Origin: a virus
Reading direction: 5' to 3' (one strand)
Length of the DNA stretch: 64,000 nt
IMG/VR virus record: IMGVR_UViG_3300018080_000123
Span: 49,607 to 113,606 of that record
Shown here: in pieces, positions 28,471 to 49,973 of the stretch
Numbering within the stretch: the first letter of the stretch is position 1
Layout of the letters: each line of letters begins with the position of its first letter
Notes under the pieces: model-generated
What the model saw: the letters and a program-made list of their open reading frames with translations, nothing else
What the model was told of the DNA's origin: nothing
Database searches by the model: none
Translations under genes and position numbers: made by a program

Positions 28471-29057
28471 CTTTGGCTCCTAAGATATGCTAATCCAACA
28501 AGAATAGCGTCACACACGTCGTTATCTTTCATTTTCATATTAAGATTATACAATTTATTGACCATTCTCACGGACAGGTGTTTTTTTGTAATTTTGCCCC
28601 TGGCCTTCTTGCCTTCCTTTTTAGCTTTTCTAATATCAGCATTATTCTGCTTATCTTCTTTTGACATATACAAGCCCATAGTTTGGCGCCACTTTGATGT
28701 ATCTAAATAAATAACTCGGATTTCTTCATCCCTACAAACATCAACAACCAAACAATGTATGAATTCAAGCATTTTTTGAGCAAATCTATTTTTCCCTTTG
28801 TTAGTTTCTTCTATCACAACCACATCGGGAATAAACTTATGATATACGTCAAAAATATTGAGCATCATCCTTTTAGCAGCATCAACATAATTAAACGGAT
28901 ACCCTTCTTCTTCGGTATTATAAGGAGCATTTTTTCCCCATACCTTCTGAACAATGGTTCCGTGGTCAACAAGTTTCTCTTCCTCGTCTATGATAGCCCA
29001 CCCCGTTTGAGTAGAGATATCCAGAGCTAAAATTCTATGCAATTTTTGATATTCCAT
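28449..29057 (-). CDS. ruvC: RuvC-like Holliday junction resolvase
   Basis: ILALDISTQTGWA, VVIEE and NDVCDAI. Confidence 0.75.
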   Translation of the reverse strand: MEYQKLHRILALDISTQTGWAIIDEEEKLVDHGTIVQKVWGKNAPYNTEEEGYPFNYVDAAKRMMLNIFDVYHKFIPDVVVIEETNKGKNRFAQKMLEFIHCLVVDVCRDEEIRVIYLDTSKWRQTMGLYMSKEDKQNNADIRKAKKEGKKARGKITKKHLSVRMVNKLYNLNMKMKDNDVCDAILVGLAYLRSQRCKMNDL

Positions 29058-30882: not shown

Positions 30883-31229
30883 TCGTAGTCCTCCATCTTT
30901 TTTGGAGTTCCGTCTTCCCTCAACCAACCCTGCTCTTTTGCATATTTGGTCCCATATTTGGCAACCAGATCGGGCAGCTCATATTTAACGTGATGTTCTT
31001 TGGTTCGTCTTTTCATAATCGAATTCAGGTCTTTTTTAATCTGTTTATTTCTATAGGAATCGGCCTGCTCTTTAACGATAGCATTAGAAACAATAGCAGC
31101 TTTTTTCTTCATCGAAGTTCCACACTTACTACATACAGGACAAACATAGCTGTTTTCTTCTTCACGGGTCTTGAAGAGTTTTCTTTTTTCTTCTGCGCAC
31201 TTATCGCATACATATATTCTAATTGGCAT
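30879..31229 (-). CDS. FmdB-like zinc-ribbon protein
   Basis: MPIRIYVCDKC...CSKCG. Confidence 0.6.
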   Translation of the reverse strand: MPIRIYVCDKCAEEKRKLFKTREEENSYVCPVCSKCGTSMKKKAAIVSNAIVKEQADSYRNKQIKKDLNSIMKRRTKEHHVKYELPDLVAKYGTKYAKEQGWLREDGTPKKMEDYE

Positions 31230-32214
31230 CTCTTACCTGCTTAAGTATTTTTTGACTAAGTTGATTTAATTTTTCTTTGTCAAGTTTCGTTTGAAGAGTA
31301 CTGATGTAGACTTCAACCATTTTATTCTTATCTAGATTTTCCTCGATCTTGATAAGTTTGGCGCTTTTAATTTCTATTTTTTGAAGAGAGAGGTTAGGAA
31401 AATTGAACATTGATTTGGTAATTTTGTTGAGGACATCTTTTGGTCCTTTTAGCTTAAGCCTAATATAATCGCCAGGAGAAGCTTCAATTTTGATGCTCTT
31501 AATATCTTTTTTCTTCATTACCGTGCAGCTTAATTGAATATGACGCGGTAAATCTAATCTAATTTTGTTTATACTATCATCTCTGGTGTCATAAATAATA
31601 ACACTCTTTTCTTGATTAGCTTCTGAAAATGAATGAGAGAAGGGTGTCCCTACACAAATAATATTCTTTTGCTCTTGAGGAGTATGAATATGTCCTAAAA
31701 AAACTCTCTTATAGGGGTCAAAACGAGAAACTTTAATTCCGCTAGTTATTTCTTTCCCGCTCTCATACTTAAAACCACTGACGTCTTGATGAGCATATAT
31801 AACATCCACATTCCCAACCTTTTGCAACGCGGAGACAAAGGATTCCTCGTTCTTACAATAAGGAATCACCCCAGCCCGAACCGATTCAGAAGAAAACCCG
31901 AAGGCAATAGGCTCAGAATGAATATCTACGTTCTCTAATTGATTGAATGGAGTTAGAGCGTGATTTTGACACTCAAGATTCTCATAATCGTGATTTCCAA
32001 CAAGCATAGAAACACGCGTTGGCCAATCGCGAAGCTGATGAAGAAGAAATCTCTGACATTCAGATCTGATATCAGCTTTTCCGTGATATTGATCTCCCAA
32101 GAATATAGTATGATCGACAGTTTTTGCAATCTCGCGCAGCTGTTCAAAACATTTTTCAGCTGTCTTCAGTCGGCTCTTCTTCAGATGAAGATCCCCAACT
32201 ATCAGTTTCCTCAT
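31219..32214 (-). CDS. sbcD: SbcD/Mre11-like (T4 gp47-like) nuclease
   Basis: GDLH, LGD, GNHD and LGHIH. Confidence 0.88.
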   Translation of the reverse strand: MRKLIVGDLHLKKSRLKTAEKCFEQLREIAKTVDHTIFLGDQYHGKADIRSECQRFLLHQLRDWPTRVSMLVGNHDYENLECQNHALTPFNQLENVDIHSEPIAFGFSSESVRAGVIPYCKNEESFVSALQKVGNVDVIYAHQDVSGFKYESGKEITSGIKVSRFDPYKRVFLGHIHTPQEQKNIICVGTPFSHSFSEANQEKSVIIYDTRDDSINKIRLDLPRHIQLSCTVMKKKDIKSIKIEASPGDYIRLKLKGPKDVLNKITKSMFNFPNLSLQKIEIKSAKLIKIEENLDKNKMVEVYISTLQTKLDKEKLNQLSQKILKQVRDAN

Positions 32215-35695: not shown

Positions 35696-35924
35696 TTTCC
35701 TCTTCCTCTCCGCTCAAATCGGTATGTTTTCTAAAACCATAGAGGGCCCCGATTGATCCTACAACCGTTGCAAAATCGGTTCCAGAAAACTCGCCAAGAG
35801 AAATTCCCTGAATTGTCATTCCCGATAGTAAAAGTTTGATAATTGACACAAAAAAAGCAATAACAAGTAAAGTAAGAGTGACGGACGATTTACTCGTTTT
35901 GGGGTCTCGGATCCACACTTTCAT
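35688..35924 (-). CDS. two-TM holin-like protein
   Basis: KSSVTLTLLVIAFFVSII and FATVVGSIGALYGFRK, charged tail. Confidence 0.45.
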   Translation of the reverse strand: MKVWIRDPKTSKSSVTLTLLVIAFFVSIIKLLLSGMTIQGISLGEFSGTDFATVVGSIGALYGFRKHTDLSGEEEESV

Positions 35925-36522
35925 AGTCTCCCTCCTGATCCCATTCGTTGACAAAATAATCCATTATCGTTTTAGCCATCGGATATTTCTCAAGCAATGG
36001 GCCATAATATTTGTCATTTAATTGACTAATAGTATTCTTATATACCTTGTTAAATTTAGTATTTCCACTACGGCGTTCTTCTGTTAAATAAATTAGCCGC
36101 TCAAGTAAATCTGCAAGATCAATAATTTCTCCCTCTATTCCATCTTTGCAGTTGAGAGTGGCTCGGCGAATATTCTTTTTAGCTTCTCTAGGTAAATGTA
36201 AGAGAGCCTCATCAAATAATTTTGTCTCAATTTGTTTAGTTTTGGCTCGCATTTCATCATCAAAATTTTTTGTAGGAGCAGGGATATCCCCCAGCATAGA
36301 TTCGGGGACATCGTGCCATGCAGCTTTAGAATAGATCGCTAACATATCTAATTTTTCTTCATTCTCTCCTCTTCGCGCATTTTCGCACTCGGCAATAATA
36401 GCAGCCAAACAAATGACAACATGACTATGAGCCGCAACAGACTGAGAACAATTGACTCTATGAGTTGAGTACCTTTTGATATACTGAAGATTAAGCAAAA
36501 TATTAAGTAGTTGATTCTTCAT
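35890..36522 (-). CDS. HD-domain deoxynucleotide phosphohydrolase (YfbR-like)
   Basis: IKRYS, QSVAAHS, WHDVPESMLGDIPAPTK and LADLLE. Confidence 0.85.
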   Translation of the reverse strand: MKNQLLNILLNLQYIKRYSTHRVNCSQSVAAHSHVVICLAAIIAECENARRGENEEKLDMLAIYSKAAWHDVPESMLGDIPAPTKNFDDEMRAKTKQIETKLFDEALLHLPREAKKNIRRATLNCKDGIEGEIIDLADLLERLIYLTEERRSGNTKFNKVYKNTISQLNDKYYGPLLEKYPMAKTIMDYFVNEWDQEGDYESVDPRPQNE

Positions 36523-37231
36523 CGCCCTTTTTTAAAACCTTTCTTTGAATCTTTTTAAATACTTTTGCCGAATCCTTTTCCAACTGTTCTAATTCTCCAT
36601 ACACACTATCAACAACCGCATCGGCCTTATCCCGAAGAACTAGATATCCCTGCTCCGACGGATGGTTATCTTTTCCCTTTTCCTCGGCAACCTCATTTTT
36701 GACATATACCAAATAGAATTCATCTCCAAATGTTTTCTTACAGTGTTCATATTCATTTTCAAATCTCATATCAGTAACAAGATATACCCCCTGAGGTTGA
36801 ACATTTTTGAATGCCATCTCGATATGCCACGTAGGACAAATATGCCTAATAATTTCAGTAGCAACAAATTTAATCACATCTCTATAGGTATTTTTTCCTC
36901 CAACAAAAACGTGCCTATCCCACGAACTCACTGAAATTGAGTATGGATTAATCACATTTTTATTTTTCAAGCGATTGTAAAGGTCTGCTACTTTATGAAT
37001 AATCTGTCTTACGGTTTTAGTGCTTAAAGGAACATTTTTGCTTAAAAAACTATCTTTCTCGTCTCCGTCTATTTGTTCTGCGGTAAACTTAAAAATCTCT
37101 TTCATAATTTCATCTTTAAAGCACCTTGCAAAACAAATTGTTCCAGATGCTCCAAATCGCTCGAGAGCAATCTGTCCTACTGTGTCTTTTCCTGCTCTTT
37201 TCGCCCCTATAAGTCCAATAATTAGTCTCAT
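36503..37231 (-). CDS. deoxynucleoside monophosphate kinase (T4 gp1-like)
   Basis: IIGLIGAKRAGKDT, VTDMRFENE and HPSE. Confidence 0.85.
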   Translation of the reverse strand: MRLIIGLIGAKRAGKDTVGQIALERFGASGTICFARCFKDEIMKEIFKFTAEQIDGDEKDSFLSKNVPLSTKTVRQIIHKVADLYNRLKNKNVINPYSISVSSWDRHVFVGGKNTYRDVIKFVATEIIRHICPTWHIEMAFKNVQPQGVYLVTDMRFENEYEHCKKTFGDEFYLVYVKNEVAEEKGKDNHPSEQGYLVLRDKADAVVDSVYGELEQLEKDSAKVFKKIQRKVLKKGDEESTT

Positions 37232-37247
37232 ATTGTCTCCTACCTCC

Positions 37248-37255
37248 ATTATACA
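37248..37255 (-). promoter_or_regulatory. -10-only promoter motif TGTATAAT
   Basis: Overlaps the dnaE stop codon, ahead of the SD. Confidence 0.5.
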
Positions 37256-40200
37256 ACAATACACTTAATTGAATTGAGAGCTAGTCCAAATTTGCTAGTT
37301 GATCCTACTATTTCAACCATTATACCGGGAACTAACTTATCTTTCACCGCCGGTAGAATATCGCTCCAAACGTAAACTGTTATGACATTATCTCCGTTTT
37401 TGACCTTCACTCGATAAAAATCTTTATCGGTTTTTGTCTTTGCTTTCTGAACAAGGTCGATTAAACCTCCTATGCGAACAGTCTGGTTATCAATAGGAGG
37501 AATTTTAGTATAATCCCCAATTGTTCCCTTTGTAAAAAGAGTATCAAATCTTCTTACCCAATCGGTCCTATAAATTGAAAGAGCATTTTTCTTAAGTTCT
37601 TCAAAAGCGAAGGTATTATCAATATTGTCAAACTTCTTTGGAACGTCTTCTTTTCTCAAAAAATAGAAATGCATGATGAGATCTCTAATGCTTTTCTCTG
37701 GCTCTATATTTCTAAATGTATTCGATAAAATTAAATTTTCAATCACATTCTTCTTTACGGTTCTTTTTTCTATTCGAGTCCAAAAATCCTTGAAACTATT
37801 AAAAGGTCTTTTAGAAATAATCTCTTCAATTGCTTCATCGGCAACTTGGGTAACATAAGCGAGGGGCATAACCAGTTTCTCATTTTCGTTAAGTCTGAAC
37901 TCTTTTTCGCTTTCGTTGATTTCTGGTTCAATTAGAATATCGCGTAAAAAACTGTTCTTATCGTCTTCAACAAACCCCTTAAAGTCATCCGTCGAGCAAT
38001 TCTGGAATACGGATGCCCACCACTCTAACGGATAATAGGTTTTTAGATATTGACATATATATCCTATATACGAATAACAAACAGAATGAGATCTATTGAA
38101 GCAATAGCTCGCGTAGTTTTCCATTTCTTTAAGCAAAGTATGAGCTCCATCCTCGCTCATTGGAGGATTAAGCTGTGTCGTTGCGTAATTAATGAATTGA
38201 TCTTTTGCCTCTTGTTTTAGTCCCCCAGGCTTTGAAATAGCTTTTCTAATATGATTCGATTCTACGGCGGTAAAACCCCCTAAAGACTGAAAAATTCTCA
38301 TGATTTGCTCTTGATAGACCATCAGCCCATATGTATCTTTCAAAATTGGCTCTAAAGCAGGATGAACATAAGTTATTGCCTTTTCTCCTAATTTTCGATC
38401 AACATACTTCTCGTCCATTTTTCCAAGCCTGTATGGTCCCGGTCGACCTATTGCTGTAATAATTGCTAGGTCATTAAACGTATCTGCTTTTGATCTTTCT
38501 AAAAGAGGAGTCGACAAAGCCGTATTAAACTGAAATACTGACTCAGTATCTCCTTTTCTAAACTTGTCTAGAACCTTTTTATCGGTCGGCTCTAAACTAT
38601 AAATATCTAGATCTATATTTCTTCTCAATTTGAGTAATCTAAGACACCCTTGAATATCTCTCAGAGTATTCAGAGATAGAATATCAAACTTGACTAATCC
38701 CGCTTTTTCTAGATATCTTCCATCATATCCAGTCATTGGGGTTGCATCAAGTGCGTTTGGCTTATTTATTACAACCGGAATATAGTCTGTTGGATTTCCA
38801 GGAACAATTACAATCGCGCAAGGATGAACTTTATTAGTCTTGATTTTGCCTGCCATCTTTAACGCTGCTTTGAACACATCTTGATTGGCAACAAAAAATC
38901 CCTGAAGCTCTTCATTCCCCTCGCTAAACAAAAACTCTTCAAACCATTCACGCTCATTAACTCCAGGGCCAGAGGACGGAATGTCTTTAGTAATTGTATT
39001 TATGTATGCATAGTCATAAGCTTCTTTTCGAAGAACCCTGTAAGCATCTTTAATAGCTGTTTTTGTTTTGATGCCCTGCAGAATCCCAACTCTAATTACT
39101 TTATCATGTCCATATTTTTGTCTCAAATAACCAAACACTGATTCCTGATCAGAAAAGTCTAGATCAATATCGGGATAATCAGTTCTACTAATATCAAGAA
39201 ACCTTTCAAACGGCATATCATATTTGATAGGATCTAGTTTAGTAATATCTAATGCATAAGAAAGCAAAGATCCTCCAACAGATCCACGACCTGGCCCAAC
39301 AAGGATATCATTAGCCCTACACCATCGAACAATATCTTCAATAATAAGGAAGTAGTCAGCAAAACCTTTCTCTTTTATTACCGTCAGCTCGAAGTTCAAT
39401 CTTTGAATATATTCATCTCGGATAGGAATTTTCTTATTCTTTTTAACAATAGTAAGTAAGAGGTCCTCAGAGGTCATTTTTTCTTTTGATAAAGGATGGT
39501 CTTCAATAGGAAATCTAACAACCTCAGGCCTTCTTCCTAACTCATATATCTCTACCTTATCTGCTATTTCATTGGAATTCTGAACCGATTGGTTGAATTC
39601 TTCTTTAGTAAAAATCTTATCGTGCCCGTGCTTCTTGAACTCTTCCCAAGATTCTTCAGCGGTCATCAAATAATGATTATCAGTAGCAAAATGCCATCCA
39701 TCTTTTCCTGCAAACGAATTAAGAATAAAGATATCTTGAATCTGCTTATCTTGTTTACTCGGATAATGAACATCCAAAGTATGAATTAGTTTCACATTGT
39801 GTTTGCGGGCCCATTCAATCATCTGTCTATTGTGATCGATTTGAGAATTCTTTTCAGTCTTTTCAAAATTTTTATACTCCCTATTCCACTGCGTACTAAG
39901 ATCAAGCGGCTGAATCTCAGCATAAAAATCATCGCCAAGCTCTTTTTTAAACTCAATGAAGAGCTCTTCGCTTGTGACAGAAGATGCAATGCATGCAGTA
40001 GTAACGATTAGGCCTTCTTTATGATCAAACAGATCTTGAATACTAATCAAAGGCCGGTAGTTGAACGTCTTAAATCCTAACGAAGCAAGCTTCAATAAAT
40101 TAAGATACCCGGCATGGTTCTTAGCAAGAGCAACAATATGTCGTCTTTCAATTTTTTTCTTTGTCTTTTTTTCAGGAAGAAAAAACTTTTCGCACGTATA

Positions 40201-40401
40201 AAACTCAACGCCTAAAACAAGCTTAATATCTTCTGTTTTGCAAGCTTCATGAAAATGGAAAAGGCCACAGGCAGTACCGTGATCGGTAATACCTATGGCC
40301 TTCATCCCGAGTTTCTTAGCTCTTTTTACGTACTCTTCAGGTGTCCCAACTCCGTCGAGGAAAGAATACATAGTGTGAAGGTGTAGCTCAACTCTTTCCA
40401 T
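37249..40401 (-). CDS. dnaE: DNA polymerase III alpha subunit (family C)
   Basis: PHP motifs HLHTMYSFLDG and ITDHG, GPGRGSVGGSL, PDIDLDF, KFDILSL, FNRSHS, C-terminal OB fold. Confidence 0.95.
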   Translation of the reverse strand: MERVELHLHTMYSFLDGVGTPEEYVKRAKKLGMKAIGITDHGTACGLFHFHEACKTEDIKLVLGVEFYTCEKFFLPEKKTKKKIERRHIVALAKNHAGYLNLLKLASLGFKTFNYRPLISIQDLFDHKEGLIVTTACIASSVTSEELFIEFKKELGDDFYAEIQPLDLSTQWNREYKNFEKTEKNSQIDHNRQMIEWARKHNVKLIHTLDVHYPSKQDKQIQDIFILNSFAGKDGWHFATDNHYLMTAEESWEEFKKHGHDKIFTKEEFNQSVQNSNEIADKVEIYELGRRPEVVRFPIEDHPLSKEKMTSEDLLLTIVKKNKKIPIRDEYIQRLNFELTVIKEKGFADYFLIIEDIVRWCRANDILVGPGRGSVGGSLLSYALDITKLDPIKYDMPFERFLDISRTDYPDIDLDFSDQESVFGYLRQKYGHDKVIRVGILQGIKTKTAIKDAYRVLRKEAYDYAYINTITKDIPSSGPGVNEREWFEEFLFSEGNEELQGFFVANQDVFKAALKMAGKIKTNKVHPCAIVIVPGNPTDYIPVVINKPNALDATPMTGYDGRYLEKAGLVKFDILSLNTLRDIQGCLRLLKLRRNIDLDIYSLEPTDKKVLDKFRKGDTESVFQFNTALSTPLLERSKADTFNDLAIITAIGRPGPYRLGKMDEKYVDRKLGEKAITYVHPALEPILKDTYGLMVYQEQIMRIFQSLGGFTAVESNHIRKAISKPGGLKQEAKDQFINYATTQLNPPMSEDGAHTLLKEMENYASYCFNRSHSVCYSYIGYICQYLKTYYPLEWWASVFQNCSTDDFKGFVEDDKNSFLRDILIEPEINESEKEFRLNENEKLVMPLAYVTQVADEAIEEIISKRPFNSFKDFWTRIEKRTVKKNVIENLILSNTFRNIEPEKSIRDLIMHFYFLRKEDVPKKFDNIDNTFAFEELKKNALSIYRTDWVRRFDTLFTKGTIGDYTKIPPIDNQTVRIGGLIDLVQKAKTKTDKDFYRVKVKNGDNVITVYVWSDILPAVKDKLVPGIMVEIVGSTSKFGLALNSIKCIVV

Positions 40402-40412
40402 TAAAGCTAACC

Positions 40413-40691
40413 TTATTTGTTCAACAATCCAAGTTTCCTCGCCTGGTAGTTGACGATAGTAACGGTGGATTTGTTGAAACCCTGTCCGATGATATCTGCA
40501 GCAGCTTCACCGGCCAAAAGGCGACGGAGAATGTCAGCTCGCTTTTTCGTAAAACGAACTTTGGTAACATTCCCATTCTTTCGCTCCAACTCGAAAGTCT
40601 TACCAAACCACTCCTCGGCACTCGCCGTGGCGTCGGTATTGGGAGTTTCGACAGTTGCAGCATTCTCAGTCATGTCTAAGGTAGTAGTCAT
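40413..40691 (-). CDS. small putative DNA-binding (HTH) protein
   Basis: RADILRRLLAGEAAADIIGQGFNKSTV; strong SD and two promoter types upstream. Confidence 0.55.
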   Translation of the reverse strand: MTTTLDMTENAATVETPNTDATASAEEWFGKTFELERKNGNVTKVRFTKKRADILRRLLAGEAAADIIGQGFNKSTVTIVNYQARKLGLLNK

Positions 40692-40731
40692 AATTTGACC
40701 TCCTCTAGGTGTTTATGTTAGAACCACTTGT

Positions 40732-40739
40732 ATTATACA
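40732..40739 (-). promoter_or_regulatory. -10-only promoter motif TGTATAAT
   Basis: Intergenic. Confidence 0.5.
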
Positions 40740-40753
40740 TCCTATCTAATTAT

Positions 40754-40782
40754 ATTATAACATATTTTGCAAAAAAGTGCAA
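40754..40782 (-). promoter_or_regulatory. sigma70-type early promoter
   Basis: TTGCAC-N17-TATAAT-ATAAT. Confidence 0.75.
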
Positions 40783-40803
40783 GAACTTTGTTTCTCAATA
40801 ATT

Positions 40804-41352
40804 TCAACGAGTTAGCCCTAAGATAAACTCATACCAAGATCTTTTGGCTAGCTGTCCTAAGGTGTGATAGAGCTGAGAAACTCCTTTCTGATAGTTGATT
40901 TTGCACTCGCGTCGATACATAATTTCCCCACAATCTACGTCTTTTGTAGCTTTATGGATTACAACCCCAGTCGATGGAAGCTCTAAACGATATGCCTTCT
41001 CTTGAGGATCTTTTCCTTTAAGCTCGGGGAATTTTACTATGTCTCCAGGATGAAGATTATAGATTTTGTACTCGGCACAAATTTCTTCAGGAATAACCCT
41101 CATATATCCCATAAGAAAAATATAGTCGATAGGCATAAACTCTTCAATTCGAACTAAGACTTCTTTATAGTCCTCAAGAGTTGGATTTTTTGGAAGAACA
41201 TAGATTAGATTTGAATTCCAACCGCCTTTCAACAGAGGAGATTTTGCGTTATTTGTAACAAAAACAACTGCGCTAATCCCCAATTCCCATTGGCGATCGG
41301 CTATGTGTTGAGCATCCGAACCTGTGCGCGAGCTAAAAATAACAACATTCAT
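40804..41352 (-). CDS. dpdN: PurN-like formyltransferase, putative dPreQ1 formyltransferase
   Basis: FSSRTGS, LMGYMRVI, YNLHPG and TGVVIH...VDCGEI; last gene of the que/dpdA cluster. Confidence 0.75.
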   Translation of the reverse strand: MNVVIFSSRTGSDAQHIADRQWELGISAVVFVTNNAKSPLLKGGWNSNLIYVLPKNPTLEDYKEVLVRIEEFMPIDYIFLMGYMRVIPEEICAEYKIYNLHPGDIVKFPELKGKDPQEKAYRLELPSTGVVIHKATKDVDCGEIMYRRECKINYQKGVSQLYHTLGQLAKRSWYEFILGLTR

Positions 41353-41353
41353 C

Positions 41354-41890
41354 TCAATCCTCTTTTGATGAAGCAAGCCTCATTAATGAAACCTTACTTA
41401 AAATAAAATCAATTCTCTCATCAATTGTTCCAGCCACTACAAAATGTGGAACATCATATTCATAAAGTAACTTTCGAATTTCATCATCCACCCTTTGTTG
41501 ATACAGCGGGTTCCCCGATCTCTCGGAATCTCCCTCTAATTCAAACGTAATTGGAAAATAGAAGAAAATTGAATCGTCTTTGATTTTGTGATAAAAGTCA
41601 ATCATTTTTTTTTCGTTGCTAAAGTCCCGAATATTTACCTTTGCATAAGCAATACAGTCAAAAACATTGCGCGTAAAATATACCAGCTTATCGTAGTCAA
41701 TAAAATGTTTTTGAATATGAATAGTTAAGTCGTCAATTAAGCTTTGATATTCGGGTTTTCCAATAGGTAGATTTGCTCTAATAACAGGCCGGCTAATCCC
41801 ATCTAAGTATAAATCTCCGGTTCGGTTTGAGATTTCTCTCAACACCGTGGTTTTTCCTGTTCCATGACTTCCTACTGCAAAAATAAACAT
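41354..41890 (-). CDS. P-loop nucleotide kinase (NadR/Ttd14-like)
   Basis: AVGSHGTGKTT, RNVFDCIAY, FELEGDSER and GTIDER. Confidence 0.7.
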   Translation of the reverse strand: MFIFAVGSHGTGKTTVLREISNRTGDLYLDGISRPVIRANLPIGKPEYQSLIDDLTIHIQKHFIDYDKLVYFTRNVFDCIAYAKVNIRDFSNEKKMIDFYHKIKDDSIFFYFPITFELEGDSERSGNPLYQQRVDDEIRKLLYEYDVPHFVVAGTIDERIDFILSKVSLMRLASSKED

Positions 41891-42384
41891 TATCGGTTGT
41901 CTACCTTTTTACAATTGATATTTCTCTGTATTAGTCGATGCTGTCTAAAATTTTCCCACTCGGGACTCCCATTGCAAGAGCTCGAGAAAGGATCAATGCT
42001 AATTCCGCCCCGAGGGAGAAACTCTCCCACCACTTCGATATATCTAGGGTTCATCAGCTTCTTCAAATCTTTCATAATGATATTTACGCAATCCTCATGA
42101 AAATCTCCCTGATTGCGAAACGAAAACAAATACAGCTTTAATGACTTTGATTCGACCATCAATTCATCCGGGACATAGCTGATATAAATCGTAGCAAAAT
42201 CCGGCTGCCCAGTTTTTGGACAAAGAGACGTAAACTCGGGACAATTAAAAGTTACCATATACTCGGTATCTAAATGCTTATTCCGAAACGTCTCTAGAAC
42301 TTCAGGATTATACTTATCAGAATATTTTACATTCTGATTCCCTAGTAAGTTCACACCCTCCAATTCTTTGTCATTCCTCGACAT
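41890..42384 (-). CDS. queF: preQ0 reductase, type I QueF
   Basis: [13 protein letters not shown], QueF motif [19 protein letters not shown] and PRGGI. Confidence 0.93.
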
Positions 42385-43228
42385 TTCTTTTCTCCTGTGC
42401 AACGAGGTACTTAAATACCTCTATATTATACAAGATGCATTGCATTTGCCTAATCGTAAGCTTAACGTCAAGGTTATTGGCTAAAAGATCTTTTTTCTTC
42501 TTTCCCCTCAATCCAAAAAGATAGCTAATTTTCATGTCAAAATATCCATGAATGATAGGACAGCTTGTATCCACAGATACAATAAAGTCGTATCTATTTC
42601 CATCCCTATATTTGATAAACTCGATAGGATCGCTACATCCAAGAAGATGATGGTGTTTCTCTCTGTTAATAAGCCCTTTTTCAATAAGTCGATTGATTAG
42701 TTTATGCCGCGCTTCAACAAAGCGAAGAACTTCTTTGCCATATTTTGGAATAAGTTCATCATCATAAAACAAAACATCATATGGAATAGCAATAACGCTA
42801 ACACCGGGATTATTAACTAATGTAGAATAACAATCAAAGTATTCTTGTTCGGTTTTTCCCTGAGCAACTGCGATGATTTTATACTCTAATCTCTCTTCCT
42901 TCATTCGAGCAATAAAATTTTCAACGCTTGCAACTGTAGCAGGTCCATTATGTAAAACATCTGGAGGAACGATATGAGTAGGATTAATCATTCTTGCGTA
43001 CTTTAAAAGAAAATCAGCAGTAACAGACTCTCCCAACTCAAAAACACTATTATCAAGGAAAATTATTCGTCCTTTTTTTGCTCTGTCAATATAAAACTGC
43101 AAATACTCCGGATCCCGCTCGCACATATGAACTAAGCAATAATCAAAATCATTGAATGTCAAAGAAGGTCCAAAGAGCATTTTCGGGCACTCATGAGAAA
43201 CTAGCAACCTGTCATTTGTCTTTTTCAC
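42371..43228 (-). CDS. dpdA: TGT-fold 7-deazaguanine DNA transglycosylase (DpdA, probably DpdA3-type)
   Basis: [25 protein letters not shown] and SVDTS match TGT catalytic motifs; lies between folE2 and queF. Confidence 0.75.
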
Positions 43229-44048
43229 GAAAATTCCTTTCTAATGTTGCAATAGCATTACACTGATGAATGCTCTCATCGTGGTCGGCTGTTACTTGGT
43301 AGTAGTCGATCTTATCCCCCATCTCATCTAAAACAACAGCAATCTTACGAACCATATCCTCGACAAATCCAGGATTATCATAGGCCCTCTCTGTGACATA
43401 TTTTTCGTCAGGCCTTTTGAGAGTATTCCAAATTGGACAGCTTCCAGCTTGTTCAATTATCTGAGCAAGATCTTCAATCCAAATAAAATTTTTCATATCT
43501 TTAAAGCGAATCTTAATGGTTCCGGTCGACCTTTGATTATGAGCCCCGTGCCCCGCTCCGTTTCCATTAGAACTCATTTCTTTGCTACAAGGACAAAGAG
43601 ACGTGTACATAACACTGACGCTCAAAAAAAGATCCTTTTCTCCGTTTTCTAATACGCCTTCGAAATGACAATCGTAGTAAAAATGAGACTCTTCTCCGCT
43701 AACTGGAGCTTTCTTTTTAACAAAATATGGAAAATCAATTCGAATCTTTGAATCAGTCTGCTGAAGCTGATCTCGACATGCGTCAACCATATCATTAACA
43801 AGATCGCTATCAAGCAACTTCTTCTCAAGCGCTCTTTCAATGACTTGAGAAAACCGACTCATATTGACCCCGCGACTTTCTGTACTAAGATCAACAGCAA
43901 GAGAAACAGTTCCCACAGTCGTCGTAACTCCCTCCCCTTTTGTTTTTACGCTAAACGGAATTTTATAATTACGAATTCCCACCCAGTTAATCTTTTTGTC
44001 ATATTTGTCTTTTGAATTTTGAATATCTGGTAAATTTTGACTATTCAT
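43212..44048 (-). CDS. folE2: GTP cyclohydrolase IB
   Basis: LPDIQ, RGVNMSRF, TSLCPCSKE, GAHNQRS, LKRPDEK, FVEDMVR and ESIH. Confidence 0.93.
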   Translation of the reverse strand: MNSQNLPDIQNSKDKYDKKINWVGIRNYKIPFSVKTKGEGVTTTVGTVSLAVDLSTESRGVNMSRFSQVIERALEKKLLDSDLVNDMVDACRDQLQQTDSKIRIDFPYFVKKKAPVSGEESHFYYDCHFEGVLENGEKDLFLSVSVMYTSLCPCSKEMSSNGNGAGHGAHNQRSTGTIKIRFKDMKNFIWIEDLAQIIEQAGSCPIWNTLKRPDEKYVTERAYDNPGFVEDMVRKIAVVLDEMGDKIDYYQVTADHDESIHQCNAIATLERNFREKDK

Positions 44049-44469
44049 CTTTTTCCCTCGGGATTAAAATAGTTTCGGTTGGGAAAACAATCCAGTCGCT
44101 CGTCTCTCGAACGAAAAGATACTTGCTTGTTTTAGCGCAATCATCTTGTTTATATAGTGCAGCAAAAAAACAGAAATTTATACAATTAATTTTTTTTTCA
44201 ATTGTCCGAAAAGTCTCTCCGGTACAGAAGACATCATCTACTATCAAAGCATTACTTAGCTTAGAAGGCCAACAACTCTTATCAACCATTGATAGCCCAA
44301 CAACATTCTCTATTTCAAAAAGCTTTGATAAATATCCAGCGATAGGAAGTCCGCCGCGCGAAACTCCAACAATCTTATCAAACTCAAGATCTTTGACTTT
44401 CCACGCTAACTGAACGCATAAACTGTCAAACTCTCCCCAATCTAATCTATATTCTCTTCTACTCCTCAT
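44041..44469 (-). CDS. type I phosphoribosyltransferase (Gpt-like)
   Basis: IVGVSRGGLP, PRPP loop LIVDDVFCTGET, and WIVFP. Confidence 0.8.
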   Translation of the reverse strand: MRSRREYRLDWGEFDSLCVQLAWKVKDLEFDKIVGVSRGGLPIAGYLSKLFEIENVVGLSMVDKSCWPSKLSNALIVDDVFCTGETFRTIEKKINCINFCFFAALYKQDDCAKTSKYLFVRETSDWIVFPTETILIPREKDE

Positions 44470-45178
44470 TTTTACACTCCCAGTAAAACTTTTGAGCCGC
44501 CATCCATTCATCAAGCGTTAACAGAGGGTCTTGAACTCTATTGTCAATAAAAACTTCAGTTCGCTCCGTACACGTTCCACATTTCAAACAAGGTCTGTTT
44601 TCGCCCCTATAACACGACCACGTTGTCGAATAGTCAACCCCAAGATCAAGCCCAACCTCGCCCACTTGACTTTTTGTCATATTCTGAAACGGCCTAAGAA
44701 ACTCTACTCCTCTAAAGGTTCCAGCCTTGGCGGCTTGTTCAAAAGCAATATTGAAATCTGGACGACAATCTGGATAAATAGCATGATCTCCGGCGTGAGA
44801 TCCAAGAGCGACATAATCGGCTTCCACGCTGTCAGCAATTCCAACAAGATTTGACAACATAATCCCATTCCTGAACGGAATGACGGTCTGTTTCATGCTT
44901 TCTTGATCATACAATCCTTCAGGAATCTCTCCCCCGCTCTTTAAAAGATCTGACTTAAACAAACCATTGATATAGCTAATATCGATGGTCTGATGAGGGA
45001 TATTTAGTTTATCGCAATGCCATTTTGCAAGTGGTAACTCCTTCTCATTATGCTTTGAATTCATGAAGAATGAATAAGCCTTAAGATCATACTCTTGATC
45101 ATGAAGATAATAAAGCAAAGTTACGGAATCCATTCCTCCTGAAATGCTAATGATAGCACTTTTCTTCTTGTTTGACAT
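44459..45178 (-). CDS. queC: 7-cyano-7-deazaguanine synthase
   Basis: SISGGMDS, PFRNGI, YPDCR, and TWSCY...CLKCGTC. Confidence 0.95.
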   Translation of the reverse strand: MSNKKKSAIISISGGMDSVTLLYYLHDQEYDLKAYSFFMNSKHNEKELPLAKWHCDKLNIPHQTIDISYINGLFKSDLLKSGGEIPEGLYDQESMKQTVIPFRNGIMLSNLVGIADSVEADYVALGSHAGDHAIYPDCRPDFNIAFEQAAKAGTFRGVEFLRPFQNMTKSQVGEVGLDLGVDYSTTWSCYRGENRPCLKCGTCTERTEVFIDNRVQDPLLTLDEWMAAQKFYWECKNEE

Positions 45179-45179
45179 T

Positions 45180-45914
45180 CTATACTCCTTTTTTTGATCC
45201 GTAGAGCCAAATATGGGCTCTCGTAGCGAAATTCCACCCAGCTCTTTTGCAAAGCTCAATAACCCAACTGGCTCTCTCCTTGAGCTGTTCATCGGTAATT
45301 CCTTGAGGCATCAGCCATATCTTGTCATCAGGAATACCGAAATCTCCCTGAAAGTCAACAATTTCTGATAAATCAGAAAAGTTATGCATGACAAATTTTA
45401 CCTGGTAGTCGACCCCATCGGCTAAAAAACTATTAATTACTTGATCAATCAATCTCCTTGCTTTCCAACAAGCCGAATTGCTTGACTCTAATTTTGGTGA
45501 AAGTGAAATAAATTGAGCCTTAGAAGGCCAATAAATTGTTCCATTAGTCTCAACCGTTATATAGTGCCCGTCTTCAACTAAAACATTAATTAAGTCAGCA
45601 ACAGACTTTTGCACGTATGGTTCGCCGCCCGTAACTACAACATGTTTACATTTGAACCTTTTAACTTTTTCAACAATCTCTTCTATTGTAACAAGATTTT
45701 TTTCTGGATTCCAACTACTGTGAGGAGTGTCGCACACAGTAAATGATCCGTCACTATTTTTCCACTTACATCTAAGATTACAGCCGCTTGTACGAATAAA
45801 TACAGAAGGGACACCGGTATATTTTCCTTCGCCTTGAATTGAATAGAAAATTCCCCCATCCCCCTCTTTGGTCAAATTAATTTTTTTGTCAAGGCGACTA
45901 TCTCTATTTTTCAT
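45180..45914 (-). CDS. queE: 7-carboxy-7-deazaguanine synthase (radical SAM)
   Basis: FYSIQGEG, FIRTSGCNLRC-x11-CDT, VTGGEP, ETNGT and SPK. Confidence 0.92.
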   Translation of the reverse strand: MKNRDSRLDKKINLTKEGDGGIFYSIQGEGKYTGVPSVFIRTSGCNLRCKWKNSDGSFTVCDTPHSSWNPEKNLVTIEEIVEKVKRFKCKHVVVTGGEPYVQKSVADLINVLVEDGHYITVETNGTIYWPSKAQFISLSPKLESSNSACWKARRLIDQVINSFLADGVDYQVKFVMHNFSDLSEIVDFQGDFGIPDDKIWLMPQGITDEQLKERASWVIELCKRAGWNFATRAHIWLYGSKKGV

Positions 45915-46464
45915 TGAATGCTATCTCTCTTACTAAAATGAAGTCATTAACAGTTTGATTCCAAGCCCTCTCATTCTGATTATACAGGAGATATGCTGGA
46001 TGAAAGACTGGAACAATTTTGCATTGGATCCCGCTATAATAAGCGTTAAAAACCTTACCTCTTGATTTTGTAATACGTTGAAAATAGCCCCCCAGCAAAC
46101 ATTGGCTCGCAATTCTCCCAACTGTTACAATGACTTTTGGAGCGACTGCTTTAATTTGTTGCTCTAACCAATCAGCGCACGCTCTCACCTCATCGAGTTC
46201 AGGATCCCTGTTGTTAGGAGGCCTACACTTCACAATATTAGTAACATAAATGTTGTCATTTAAATTAAGTTGTGCTTGTTCCAATATCTTTTCTAAAACC
46301 TGCCCCGCTTTTCCCACAAACGGGAGTCCGGTTCTGTCCTCATCTGCTCCGGGGGCTTCTCCGATCAACATAATTCGAGACTCCAGTTTTCCTCGCGAAA
46401 CTACTACCTGAGTCCGCCCTAAACAAAGCTTACATCTTCGGCAATTTTTTAGATGATCAAACAC
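45904..46464 (-). CDS. family-4 uracil-DNA glycosylase (4Fe-4S)
   Basis: CRRCKLC, IGEAPGADED, PFVGKAG, VKCRPPNNR and HPAY. Confidence 0.9.
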   Translation of the reverse strand: MFDHLKNCRRCKLCLGRTQVVVSRGKLESRIMLIGEAPGADEDRTGLPFVGKAGQVLEKILEQAQLNLNDNIYVTNIVKCRPPNNRDPELDEVRACADWLEQQIKAVAPKVIVTVGRIASQCLLGGYFQRITKSRGKVFNAYYSGIQCKIVPVFHPAYLLYNQNERAWNQTVNDFILVREIAFNEK

Positions 46465-46873
46465 TCAAATCCTCTATTGTAGCATAACTATTCGCCGTTT
46501 CCCATAATCGAACTTTTTTAAGATTAACCGCGTCTGGTAGGCGGACCCATATTCTCTTCCAAAAGTCTTGAACCATATTTTCGCAAGTGGTTATATAAGG
46601 AAGTTCTTGGTTGAGAAACCTGTGATCGCACTCGCTAACAATCTCTTCTTGAATAATGCTCTTTAAATCTTTAAAATTAATAACAAAACCGTTTTCATCC
46701 ACCGGACCGATAACAGTAACCTCTAAAGTATAAGTATGTCCGTGTCCAACACAATCCTTATCCCTATAGCAAGCTCCATATATCTCTTGATTCTGCTTTT
46801 CGGTCAGATGATCATTCCAAAGCTTATGTCCGGCCTCGAACTGAACAATTTTAGTAACCGAAACTCTTTTCAC
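46457..46873 (-). CDS. queD: 6-carboxytetrahydropterin synthase
   Basis: FEAGHKL, GHGHTY, DHRFLN, TTCEN and RLWET. Confidence 0.88.
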   Translation of the reverse strand: MKRVSVTKIVQFEAGHKLWNDHLTEKQNQEIYGACYRDKDCVGHGHTYTLEVTVIGPVDENGFVINFKDLKSIIQEEIVSECDHRFLNQELPYITTCENMVQDFWKRIWVRLPDAVNLKKVRLWETANSYATIEDLSV

Positions 46874-47088
46874 GCTTCCCCCTTTCTAGCCCAACGTCTC
46901 CTATTAAACAAAACATGTCGAGCTGCTTCGACATCTTCATCCGTAAACCAAGTGTTGGAATTCGTCTCTGCTTGCCAAATCATCCACTTTAAATAGCCGC
47001 TAGAAACAAATTTAAAAGGGGTTCCTCTGTGCCTACCAAACTCTAAAAAATGATCTACGTAGCGATTCCCCTTTTTACGTTTATTCAT
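46870..47088 (-). CDS. small ExoX C-terminal/DUF3820-like protein
   Basis: FGRHRGTPF...GYLKWM. Confidence 0.55.
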   Translation of the reverse strand: MNKRKKGNRYVDHFLEFGRHRGTPFKFVSSGYLKWMIWQAETNSNTWFTDEDVEAARHVLFNRRRWARKGEA

Positions 47089-47096
47089 AATTTCTC

Positions 47097-47642
47097 CTAA
47101 TAATTACTCCAATCAATATCACTAAGATTATAGTAAATCAGCGACTTTGAATTTCCTTCCTCATCCTTATAATGATCTTTATACACGCCTGGAAGGCGTT
47201 TTTGAGTCATAATTCTCTTTCCGATATTAATCAAAAGGCATTTGACGTACATATAGATGTAAGTAGATTTTTTTCCAATCTTCAAAAGTTCTTCATCGAC
47301 AAATTTCTTCAGCTCTTTGATATCATCAACCGAGTCAATATATCGGTTAAGCTCTTCTTTCTTTTCAAGAGCCCGACGCGACCTCCTAATATATCCTTTT
47401 GCACTTTCTCTCAAAGAATCGATACAACACTCCTCTCGACACCTTTCTTTGTTCTTGAGTCTTTCGGCAGTGTGTCTCTCGCAATCTAATAGAGCGCGGA
47501 CAAGAAATAAATTACACTCTTGGATTAAATCCCTTTTTTCCATTGCAAGCAAATGGAGATTATGAATTTTTTGTTTGTTGACCAGGTCATAAACAAAATC
47601 CCTGTACTTCATAAACTCTTCGGTTAGCTGTTTATTATCCAT
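47097..47642 (-). CDS. sigma region-2-only factor (putative phage sigma)
   Basis: RDLIQECNLFLVRA resembles sigma 2.2 EDLIQEGNIGLIRA; KSTYIYMYVK resembles 2.3 FSTYATWWIR; no region 4. Confidence 0.55.
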   Translation of the reverse strand: MDNKQLTEEFMKYRDFVYDLVNKQKIHNLHLLAMEKRDLIQECNLFLVRALLDCERHTAERLKNKERCREECCIDSLRESAKGYIRRSRRALEKKEELNRYIDSVDDIKELKKFVDEELLKIGKKSTYIYMYVKCLLINIGKRIMTQKRLPGVYKDHYKDEEGNSKSLIYYNLSDIDWSNY

Positions 47643-47662
47643 AATGTCCTCCCTCACTCTAA

Positions 47663-48655
47663 TTATAGCTTATAATAATTATAAGTGCAAGCACTTTTTG
47701 CAAAATTAACTATTTCTTCCGGAGAGAAGTCCCCAGGATCTCTGCCGTCTGGGAATCTAATAACAAAAATGTCGTAAAAAGGGGCAAGTATTTTTGCCGT
47801 TTCATCTATCGCTTCAATAGCATCAGAATCTAAAGCTACAATAACAGTTTCAAGATTGGGAATCTCTCTAATCAATCGAAGCTGATATTCAGATAAAATA
47901 CTTCCAAACTGAGCGACTGCATTGATCCGATGAGCTTTAATTGCATCTACAGGGCCTTCAACAATAGTAACCAGCTTTTTATCTCTTACATTATCATAAT
48001 TGAAAAGAGCCTTAGACTTTTGAAACCCTTTTGATGTTAGAGCTTTTGGATATTTAGAATCGGCTTTCCACCTATTAGTAATATCTCTTCCTTGATATCC
48101 GACAATCTTGTCATACATTTTTACAGGAAAAATAACTCTTTTCATTTCTGGACAATATCTCAGATCAAATTTTCTTGCTAGATCTTTATTAATTCCTCGC
48201 GATTCTAAATAGAGAAACCCTTCTCTATTTGCCCTGTGCGATCTCTCAAAATCGTAGAAATTATATGGCAAAATAATTTCCGGTAAAGTCTCAAGCTTAA
48301 TTTTTTTGTCTTTGCTACTATAGGGGTCTTTCAACTCACCACTTAGGACAACTGGAAGCTTTTTTCGTTTTCCAACAATTTTATAGAAAGCTTGCCAATA
48401 TGTAGTGTTGTCTATATAGGCTACAAGATGAGCTAAATTTTGTCCAATTCCGAATCTACAGCTCTTCCTAAAACACTGAAATTGTTTTGTATCTTGATTA
48501 ACGTAAAACTTTTTTGATCTTCCGCACTTGGGGCATTTTTCAAATATGAGTTGAGATCCATTTTCTTCAAATTCAATTCCATTGTCAACAAGAAAGCCTT
48601 TTAAATCAAAGCTAGAGCATCTTTTCAAAAAGTATTGATATTTATGATCACTCAT
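47663..48655 (-). CDS. dnaG: DNA primase
   Basis: Zn finger CPKC...CFRKSC, YLESRGI, YQGRD, Toprim IVEGPVDA and LDSD. Confidence 0.88.
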   Translation of the reverse strand: MSDHKYQYFLKRCSSFDLKGFLVDNGIEFEENGSQLIFEKCPKCGRSKKFYVNQDTKQFQCFRKSCRFGIGQNLAHLVAYIDNTTYWQAFYKIVGKRKKLPVVLSGELKDPYSSKDKKIKLETLPEIILPYNFYDFERSHRANREGFLYLESRGINKDLARKFDLRYCPEMKRVIFPVKMYDKIVGYQGRDITNRWKADSKYPKALTSKGFQKSKALFNYDNVRDKKLVTIVEGPVDAIKAHRINAVAQFGSILSEYQLRLIREIPNLETVIVALDSDAIEAIDETAKILAPFYDIFVIRFPDGRDPGDFSPEEIVNFAKSACTYNYYKL

Positions 48656-49973
48656 ACTTTGCATCTATTTCCTCCAAAGTCACTTCTGTTTGCATCAATT
48701 CTGGATCATGAGTGATGATTCTCGACATATTCATTTCGCATAAAACTAGCTTTCCAGTCCTTCCGTCTCTTTGCTTATCAAGGCATAAAACAAATTGACC
48801 CTCTTTGTATGGGTTAATTGTAAAAATAGTCTCCGATACTTGAGCTATCCCAATACACTCGCTCACACTAACAGAGCGAACAATCTTAAAACTATGGGAT
48901 TGTTTATGTCCTTCTCTATTAAATTGAGCTGCAGTAAGAATAGCAATATCCAATTCGGCCGACATTAGATCAAACGTATCCCACACCTCTTGTTGATTGT
49001 GTCTTTTTTCTGAATATCTTTTTCGAGGATTAAGCTTCTGACCATAATCACACACCAACATATCACAGGGGAATTCTTTCATCTTAAACTTTACATAATC
49101 GTACACGTCTTCTACGCTTACACCTACTTTTCTCATTGGTTTAATAATGATATGATCACTTAAAAATTTTCTGGCCTTATCAATAAGCACCTTTTCTTCA
49201 GAAGAAGGCGGGCTTGAAATAATTTTGTTATATGGAATAAGAGTAACTCGGCTAAGGAAACGAGAAAGAATTTGCTCCCTCCGCCCCTCATGAAATATGA
49301 ATATCACCTTTTTTCCTACTCTAGCAGCATGATAGGCACAATTAATCAGCATCGAGGTTTTGTAAGAATTATAGCCGCCAATGATAGTCGTCACCGACTG
49401 TTTCGGAATTCCTCCTTCTAGATATTGATCGAAGATAGGAATTCCAATCGGAATCTTATTTACATTAATATGTCTAACCTTATCAAGAATAGAATAGATT
49501 TCGCTCACCTCAATTATATCATCTTTAACAAAATCAACCTGTCTAATCTCATTAATTTGATTTTGAGTATAGCTGTAGGCTTTTTCAAACTGAGCATTAT
49601 TAAACAAATTAGCAGAAGCCGAATGCGCAATTTTGAATCTATTTAACCGAATAAAATCTGTCAGCTTTGTCTTAATGTACTCTTTATTTTTAACATCTGC
49701 ATCGGCAACCGCTATAACAAGAGCCCGATAGTTTTCTCTTTCTTCTGGAACTACTTTGTTAAGCTCTTCTTTGAGAAACACGTTTGAAGGGAGCGCGTTC
49801 CATTGTTCATAGTATCTTTTGATAGTATTGAACACCCAAGAAAGATAGACATTCTCGAAGTAAGAATCCTGTAAATAGGTGATTGCTTTGCTACAAAAAT
49901 ACTCCTCTGTTAACATCAACCTAAGGATTGATCGTTGAAAATCTTTAGTAAATGGAAACTTCGCTTCGGACAT
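48648..49973 (-). CDS. dnaB: DnaB-like replicative helicase
   Basis: Variant Walker A GGYNSYKT, FHEG, VCDY, AAQFNRE and DKQRDG. Confidence 0.85.
   Translation of the reverse strand: MSEAKFPFTKDFQRSILRLMLTEEYFCSKAITYLQDSYFENVYLSWVFNTIKRYYEQWNALPSNVFLKEELNKVVPEERENYRALVIAVADADVKNKEYIKTKLTDFIRLNRFKIAHSASANLFNNAQFEKAYSYTQNQINEIRQVDFVKDDIIEVSEIYSILDKVRHINVNKIPIGIPIFDQYLEGGIPKQSVTTIIGGYNSYKTSMLINCAYHAARVGKKVIFIFHEGRREQILSRFLSRVTLIPYNKIISSPPSSEEKVLIDKARKFLSDHIIIKPMRKVGVSVEDVYDYVKFKMKEFPCDMLVCDYGQKLNPRKRYSEKRHNQQEVWDTFDLMSAELDIAILTAAQFNREGHKQSHSFKIVRSVSVSECIGIAQVSETIFTINPYKEGQFVLCLDKQRDGRTGKLVLCEMNMSRIITHDPELMQTEVTLEEIDAKYE

Follow-up and report, generated by a model that had tools for sequence, protein, structure and literature searches.

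Phage DNA that carries 7-deazaguanines is protected from restriction enzymes. The described systems closest to the one considered here are those of DpdA3, which Cui, Hutinet et al. (2023) defined together with DpdN and in which 100% of G is replaced in three phages, CP220, phiST and the Flavobacterium phage immuto_2-6A (hereafter immuto); bacterial DpdA, by comparison, modifies less than 0.1% of G (PMC10516641). Here we analyse the DpdA3-type locus in a 64,000-nucleotide stretch of viral DNA, positions 49,607 to 113,606 of IMG/VR record IMGVR_UViG_3300018080_000123, which we refer to as the window. We report that a P-loop kinase gene of this locus (41354-41890, minus strand) very probably represents a core component of DpdA3 systems, and we weigh what this association may mean for the level at which guanine is exchanged.

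The study that defined DpdA3 and DpdN also reports that reconstitution of DpdA3 in E. coli failed and that the nucleoside of 7-amido-7-deazaguanine (ADG) was found within the cytoplasm of CP220-infected cells; its text mentions neither a kinase nor a phosphoribosyltransferase (PRTase) (PMC10516641). Our literature search found no later paper on DpdA3, and we found no description of a link between the kinase and DpdA3 in the published literature. The initial annotation of the window had called the incorporation of a nucleotide made in advance an undescribed pathway, which is in part too strong, since a modified-dGTP route was proposed in 2019 for Campylobacter phages, as cited in Hutinet et al. 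2019 (PMC6884629), and the PRTase TubE is likewise known (PMC6112128).

The gene content of immuto resembles that of the window in comprising FolE, QueD, QueE, (QueC), QueF, DpdA3 and DpdN, a PRTase gene directly before FolE, and a kinase of the AAA_28 family within a DpdA3-DpdN-kinase-QueF core. The window differs in its gene order (DpdA3-QueF-kinase-DpdN), in having FolE2 for FolE, a short QueF and DnaE for PolA, in the lack of a MazG-like gene before DpdA3, and in a Cys that takes the place of the catalytic Asp of the PRTase. CP220, in which G is fully replaced (PMC10516641), has, 42 nucleotides after its DpdA3 (gp056), a gene for another member of this kinase family (gp057); its modification is dADG, and QueF, DpdN and PRTase are absent at the locus. 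The bacterial Dpd system shares with the window an enzyme of the tRNA-guanine transglycosylase (TGT) family that inserts 7-deazaguanine and an ATP-using partner, DpdB (PMC10164549), but DpdB is not a small protein with the fold of a nucleoside monophosphate (NMP) kinase.

DpdA3 and DpdN of the window

The gene at 42371-43228 (minus strand) encodes a protein of 285 amino acids that we identify, from its relatedness and predicted fold, as a DpdA3-type 7-deazaguanine transglycosylase. In tblastn comparisons with the references of PMC10516641 it is 38.7% identical to DpdA3 of immuto_2-6A (YP_010114477; E 2e-38), 39% identical to that of CP220 (gp056; E 8e-32) and 25% identical to that of phiST (CGPG_00065; E 8e-11). 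It matches the profile of the A3 family with an E-value of 2.6e-87, this profile itself containing the window sequence; it has no Pfam match, and the NCBIfam model of DpdA, with its cut-off of 200, scores it at only 14.8 bits. The AlphaFold2 model (predicted local distance difference test, pLDDT, 90) shows a TGT barrel that lacks the zinc subdomain; its fold matches TGT in Foldseek (E 7e-9), and VIA-align places it on the archaeal enzyme ArcTGT (1IQ8) with a Z score of 19.1 and a root-mean-square deviation of 3.2 over 245 residues. The protein keeps the motifs LDNS-FEL (with D59), HHLLG and DTS-P (with D220), and both aspartates are invariant across 27 family members; they may be the counterparts of Asp102 and Asp280 of TGT, to judge by the likeness of the motifs rather than by a residue-level superposition. 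The family is a large one: at 50% identity it comprises about 4,600 clusters (4,582 family representatives). Isoelectric point was dropped as a hint of DNA binding, the medians of DpdA3 (5.4) and 9g-type DpdA1 (5.6) showing no difference.

DpdN (40804-41376, minus strand; PF00551, 53.8 bits) is a PurN-like formyltransferase, predicted to convert preQ1 to formyl-preQ1, with a likely start at an ATG near 41352. Its closest relative is PurN, and in alignment with the PurN structure 3AV3 it keeps the SxxGS[DN] loop, NLHP and D-x-G, which hold the Asn-His-Asp set; the catalytic segments of the window protein that align are NLHP and D-C-G. DpdN homologs occur in about 32-33 DpdA3 loci. Among the best 150 of the 4,582 DpdA3 representatives, two (P0134 and P0140) are DpdA3-DpdN fusions of 447 amino acids, with DpdA3 at residues 1-268 and DpdN at 271-445, and other long forms carry a NUMOD3 extension (one case), a DUF3310 extension (one case) or extensions of unknown kind; the kinase domain is absent from these 150, which hold no DpdA3-kinase fusion, and a search for longer forms yielded none either. 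The natural fusions argue that DpdA3 and DpdN are successive enzymes on the same substrate, whatever the level of that substrate. The genes for preQ0 and preQ1 synthesis, FolE2, QueD, QueE, QueC and QueF, all lie in the same gene string as DpdA3, and together with DpdA3 and DpdN they make the string a DpdA3-type 7-deazaguanine module. By analogy with immuto_2-6A, we predict that in the DNA of this phage G is replaced by formyl-preQ1.

A P-loop kinase linked to DpdA3

The kinase gene of the window is on the same strand as DpdA3 and is set apart from it only by QueF. Its ATG overlaps the QueF stop codon by 1 nucleotide, and at its other end the gene runs into the longest DpdN frame. IMG/VR contains at least 526 relatives of DpdA3; we took the loci of the best 80 and searched their open reading frames (ORFs) with iterated profiles; kinase searches seeded from the window kinase, from the immuto 'thymidylate kinase' gp203 and from CP220 gp057 converge on one family. 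Of the 80 loci, 73 encode a member of this family, which in every case shares the strand of DpdA3 and lies directly downstream of it, at a distance of -49 to +22 nucleotides (mostly -16 to +6) or of about 500 nucleotides where DpdN lies between the two; of the seven loci that lack it, four stop short of 600 nucleotides past DpdA3. The same pairing is found in immuto (gp206/gp203) and CP220 (gp056/gp057), and the conserved core across DpdA3 loci is DpdA3-(DpdN)-kinase-QueF. The 80 loci span at least four unrelated phage backbones: T4-like, immuto-like, Firehammervirus and the DnaE phage of the window. In many T4-like marine phages DpdA3, kinase and QueF form a free-standing three-gene cassette amid structural genes, with neither PRTase nor FolE nearby. 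The QueF of the window has 170 amino acids, as against about 309 in most of these cassettes. As a control we examined 17 loci of 9g-type DpdA1, which acts on DNA; kinase, PRTase and MazG were found in none of them (0/17). This pattern of co-occurrence makes it very probable that the P-loop kinase belongs to the core of DpdA3 systems.

A different arrangement is seen in the phiST-type DpdA3 clade, where, in a second scan seeded with phiST-type DpdA3, a different small P-loop kinase (AAA_18) is encoded directly upstream of DpdA3, with MazG and DCD-like (dCTP-deaminase-like) genes close by; this AAA_18 kinase looks like a non-orthologous replacement. Some phiST-like loci (L102-L105) have a GT2-like glycosyltransferase gene (PF13712) directly after DpdA3, which hints at a sugar-decorated deazaguanine. 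A prediction of a complex between DpdA3 and the kinase scored 0.01, gave no verdict and is not used as evidence.

The window kinase matches Pfam AAA_28 with 37.9 bits (cut-off 27). Its P-loop, GSHGTGKT, aligns with the family-invariant residues G7, G12, K13 and T15, and every other family-invariant residue tested (R34, Q49, R74, D78, Y82, D121 and R124) is retained, D121 and R124 constituting the lid motif. Of all proteins in the string it is the best conserved, with 93% identity to its counterpart in a sister contig from a metagenome (L097, 87% identical), in which the gene order from DpdA3 through the HD gene is unchanged. A profile built from 32 kinases finds the ribosylnicotinamide-kinase (RNK) domain of NadR first, with a common DDGxRS motif, and then deoxynucleoside and thymidylate kinases (dNK and TMPK); the structural model (pLDDT 87) has as its closest folds the deoxyadenosine kinase of M. 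mycoides, TMPKs, NadR and shikimate kinase. As judged from sequence and modelled fold, the protein is of the nucleoside/NMP-kinase type (NadR-RNK, dNK, TMPK), and its features point to a small-molecule kinase rather than a DNA-handling ATPase, fitting a nucleoside and a monophosphate substrate alike. CP220 encodes a second paralog of this kinase, gp006 (L096 5407-5940), beside dUTPase and between topoisomerase and primase genes.

A proposed nucleotide-level route and its alternatives

The near-constant and often translationally coupled adjacency of DpdA3 and the kinase across very different phages supports the hint, given in the initial annotation, that the cluster may work at the nucleotide level; that hint is supported by the linkage and the family of the kinase, and loses the PRTase, HD and monophosphate kinase genes on which it had also leaned. 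We infer, with a probability of roughly 45%, that DpdA3 and the kinase serve a nucleotide-level, pre-replicative route, which is the best-supported reading of the locus. By this route DpdA3 would take a free deoxyguanosine, as nucleoside or nucleotide, and exchange its guanine for preQ1, DpdN would formylate the aminomethyl group, and the linked kinase would phosphorylate the modified monomer, a substrate that host guanylate kinase may refuse. Broad-specificity kinases would finish the triphosphate, and its incorporation by the phage DnaE would make replacement pre-replicative and potentially complete. The PRTase would convert the released guanine to GMP, and thence GTP would reach the neighbouring FolE2, closing a guanine-to-deazaguanine loop and pulling the exchange forward; in this lineage the deoxynucleoside monophosphate kinase (DNMK) and the YfbR-like HD protein may add a second phosphorylation and dephosphorylate dG nucleotides. 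DpdA3 would then be, as we tentatively suggest, the first TGT-family enzyme to exchange a base on a free dG nucleoside or nucleotide, and with the kinase it would shunt the dG pool into a 7-deazaguanine deoxynucleoside triphosphate (dNTP).

If true, this would account for the confinement of full G replacement to DpdA3 phages, would widen the TGT superfamily by a new class of substrate, and would offer in DpdA3, the kinase and QueF a compact cassette for the enzymatic production of 7-deaza-dGTP analogues; given the size of the DpdA3 family (about 4,600 clusters), the answer concerns many environmental phages. Phages with Z (2-aminoadenine) genomes encode nucleotide phosphohydrolases and a phage polymerase nearby. 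Their system (PurZ, MazZ, DatZ and DpoZ) resembles our proposal in that a modified deoxynucleoside monophosphate (dNMP) is built from a canonical deoxynucleotide and a purine is fully replaced (PMC8065100), but PurZ is a homolog of adenylosuccinate synthetase and not a TGT barrel, and for the window only candidates can be named as the remover of dGTP.

The PRTase gene (44041-44469, minus strand) starts at ATG 44469, with GGGAG 8 nucleotides upstream, although a TTG at 44514 is likewise open. It overlaps FolE2 by 8 nucleotides and QueC by 11; the overlaps of PRTase and kinase with their que neighbours had been recorded in the initial annotation, and both are confirmed. The protein belongs by sequence to the Gpt/XPRT (xanthine PRTase) class of purine enzymes. 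It passes the Pfam model PF00156 narrowly (26.6 bits, cut-off 26.3); its best NCBIfam match, nearly full length, is the xanthine PRTase PRK09177 (E 7e-10), and it misses the equivalog cut-off of the xanthine PRTase model NF006613 (38.7 against 138 bits). The closest solved proteins are the archaeal purine PRTases 1VDM and GpT-2 of Sulfolobus (4Z1O), to which the motif for phosphoribosyl pyrophosphate (PRPP), LIVDDVFCTGET, and the pyrophosphate (PPi) loop, GVSRGGL, align. With these and E. coli Gpt it shares a length of about 140-150 amino acids, the PPi loop SRGG, the PRPP motif VDD..TG.T and a C-terminal W-I-V-F-P; it differs from them in that the catalytic Asp of DDxxDTG is a Cys (DDVFCTGET). 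This Cys is also present in P0016, its sole close homolog (69% identical), while of the 13 other PRTases linked to DpdA3 12 have Asp at this position, and 74 of 80 database homologs have Glu. In 6-oxopurine PRTases the Asp after the PRPP motif (Asp137 of HGPRT) contacts N7 of the purine, and 7-deazaguanines have no N7.

PRTase homologs are found in 18 of 84 DpdA3 loci, namely in 11 of the 25 with FolE as against 7 of the 59 without it, and in 8 of these 11 the gene is directly upstream of FolE, as in the window and immuto; none is found near DpdA3 in CP220 or phiST. One guanine is freed per exchange and one GTP is spent at FolE per deazaguanine, which makes salvage the simplest reading of the PRTase, and both its position beside FolE and the acidic N7-contact residue kept in the family fit the recycling of guanine. 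Most likely, then, judging from sequence and context, the PRTase recycles released guanine and feeds FolE2. The initial annotation had offered the PRTase as the entry to the route, an assignment that its sparse distribution, its enrichment beside FolE and the conserved acidic residue speak against; the second option offered there, that PRTase and kinase only recycle guanine, fits the PRTase but not the kinase, which is found in cassettes without PRTase or FolE.

DNMK, a dNMP kinase of the T4 gp1 type (36503-37264, minus strand; PF21448, 35.4 bits; phrog_139), and the YfbR-like HD phosphohydrolase (35890-36522, minus strand; PF12917, 107 bits; phrog_7076 'dATP triphosphohydrolase', E 3.6e-23), which among solved structures comes nearest to YfbR (2PAQ) and OxsA (5TK6), directly follow DnaE, as had been annotated. 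All four ORFs of interest, for PRTase, kinase, DNMK and HD, are present on the minus strand where they had been placed, with their families correctly called. Searches of the complete genomes of immuto, CP220 and phiST, and of two large DpdA3 contigs, returned neither the HD nor the DNMK family; the two genes are lineage-specific and not, as their inclusion in the proposed route had implied, general partners of DpdA3. Co-occurrence with DpdA3, suggested as a check for all of these genes, is strong for the kinase, patchy for the PRTase and nil for HD and DNMK in the three reference phages. Candidates for the removal of dGTP, from sequence, are the HD protein and an all-alpha dUTPase_2/PRA-PH-like NTP pyrophosphohydrolase (21333-21749, minus strand; PF08761, 47.5 bits) that could act on dUTP or another dNTP; the gene for the latter adjoins structural genes, 20 kb away. 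Neither MazG (PF03819) nor HD (PF01966) has a match in the phage genome. The HD-AAA_33 fusion encoded upstream of DpdA3 in CP220 (gp055) was considered as a dGTPase but not used as one, since it may equally be an end-healing HD-Pnk.

Several observations weigh against a nucleotide-level route. To our knowledge all characterised relatives among TGT and DpdA enzymes act on polymer, either tRNA or DNA, and activity on a monomer would be without precedent. The phage genome has no clear dGTP-destroying enzyme, nucleoside diphosphate kinase or ribonucleotide reductase (RNR). The window kinase and that of the sister contig L097 have Thr (F-T-R-N) at the 'DR' Asp, D73, which is kept in at least 90% of the family. 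At 70% identity the proteins of the 80 loci fall into 27 DpdA3 and 35 kinase clusters, and the loci are related, non-independent samples. phiST has no kinase of the AAA_28 family although its G is fully replaced, and the adjacent kinase is mostly absent from a PolA-linked DpdA3-like clade that includes Bacillus phages. Conversely, the Bacteroides phage DAC16 (178 kb) encodes the kinase (L003 11986-12540; E 5e-21 to the A2 profile), and DpdA3 was not found anywhere in its genome; the neighbours of this kinase gene are uninformative, being RNase H, an AAA_33 kinase, a weak methyltransferase match and, for the most part, genes without a match. Finally, the authors who defined DpdA3 regard insertion as post-replicative (PMC10516641).

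Were insertion post-replicative, DpdA3 would work on finished DNA, the PRTase would recycle guanine, and the P-loop protein would be a DNA-level accessory, which could be an ATPase partner like DpdB or a DNA-directed kinase like the 5-hydroxymethyldeoxyuridine DNA kinases of thymidine hypermodification. We consider this less likely than the nucleotide-level route but still a strong contender. In its favour are the homology of DpdA3 with TGT and DpdA, the need of bacterial DpdA for ATP hydrolysis by DpdB (PMC10164549), and the proposals that DpdM works on preQ1 within DNA and that every deazaguanine modification is post-replicative (PMC10516641). The tight coupling of two genes suits a protein partner as much as consecutive enzymes, and the DpdA3-DpdN fusions are compatible with either level. 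What tells against a DNA-level accessory is the protein itself, which has a compact fold of the nucleoside/NMP-kinase kind, shares its lid motif with NadR-RNK and carries no DNA-binding or ParB-like part, together with the paralog beside dUTPase in CP220, the MazG and DCD-type nucleotide-pool enzymes near DpdA3 in other clades, and the confinement of 100% replacement to DpdA3 phages (PMC10516641).

Two further readings seem improbable to us. In one, the PRTase would join preQ0, preQ1 or 7-carboxy-7-deazaguanine (CDG) to PRPP, the kinase would phosphorylate the ribonucleotide, host RNR would give the deoxy form for incorporation by DnaE, and DpdA3 would clear residual G. The precedent is TubE/ToyH of tubercidin and toyocamycin synthesis, purine-type PRTases encoded, as in the window, with FolE, QueD and QueE, of which TubE links CDG and PRPP and which place 7-deazaguanine on ribose 5-phosphate (PMC6112128); those systems belong to Streptomyces secondary metabolism, yield ribonucleoside products and have no DpdA. 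The Cys lineage of the window PRTase and P0016, the missing N7 of deazaguanines and the use of CDG by TubE keep this route alive for the present lineage, whose PRTase may, on this evidence, be a TubE-like 7-deazaguanine enzyme. Against it stand the absence of PRTase from most loci, from the DpdA3-kinase-QueF cassettes and from the surroundings of DpdA3 in CP220 and phiST, the Asp or Glu of nearly all other homologs, the position of the gene before FolE and the lack of an RNR in the phage genome. In the other, kinase, PRTase, DNMK and HD would be ordinary nucleotide-supply genes of a replication module with no specific tie to modification; genes for dNMP kinases, nucleotidases and enzymes of salvage are common in large phages, other DpdA3 phages yielded neither DNMK nor HD, and DAC16 has the kinase without DpdA3. 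Mere coincidence is hard to reconcile with a kinase gene beside DpdA3 in 73 of 80 loci on unrelated backbones, where stop and start codons often overlap, and in none of the DpdA1 control loci.

The gene string and its surroundings

The virus record of 113,606 bp was judged complete, with direct terminal repeats, and the window is its right-hand 64 kb. Positions 35,890-49,973 form one minus-strand gene string, its spacers short or negative, in the order DnaB, primase, two ORFs of unknown function, QueD, family-4 uracil-DNA glycosylase, QueE, QueC, PRTase, FolE2, DpdA3, QueF, P-loop kinase, DpdN, a 92-amino-acid ORF, DnaE, DNMK and YfbR-like HD. Within it, QueD, a 6-carboxytetrahydropterin synthase, is at 46457-46873 (PF01242, 98 bits), QueE, the radical SAM CDG synthase, at 45180-45914 (PF04055, 46 bits; it clusters with QueE of other DpdA3 loci), QueC, the preQ0 synthase, at 44459-45292 (PF06508, 170 bits), FolE2, GTP cyclohydrolase IB, at 43212-44048 (PF02649, 270 bits), and the short, unimodular QueF, which converts preQ0 to preQ1, at 41890-42402 (PF14489, 113.6 bits; TIGR03139, 170 bits). 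The phage DnaE, a Pol III alpha subunit, is at 37249-40401 (PF07733, PF17657, PF02811 and PF14579), and the ORF of 92 amino acids between it and DpdN, at 40413-40691, has no Pfam or PHROG match and is 86% identical in the sister contig L097.

The family-4 uracil-DNA glycosylase (45904-46464, minus strand; PF03167, 125.8 bits; TIGR00758, 195 bits) is placed between QueD and QueE, and among the other DpdA3 loci a homolog is found only in a Bacillus phage (L004, BSTP12). That phage, together with L107-L127, makes up the distant PolA-linked clade of about 20 loci, in which the DpdA3-like gene is directly upstream of PolA and FolE, QueE, QueD and QueC are also present; in BSTP12 a marginal relative of the kinase is encoded upstream (hhalign probability 59%).

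An ORF of 186 amino acids at 47097-47657 (minus strand) has no match in Pfam, PHROGs or NCBIfam. A scan for sigma-70 promoters between 35000 and 52000 gave 51 sites against 48 expected and is uninformative, and a DNA-level search of the phage collection returned short QueF matches alone. Downstream of the replication genes, at 29035-32214 (minus strand), the window encodes an SbcC/Rad50-like ATPase of 630 amino acids and an SbcD/Mre11-like phosphoesterase of 331 amino acids.

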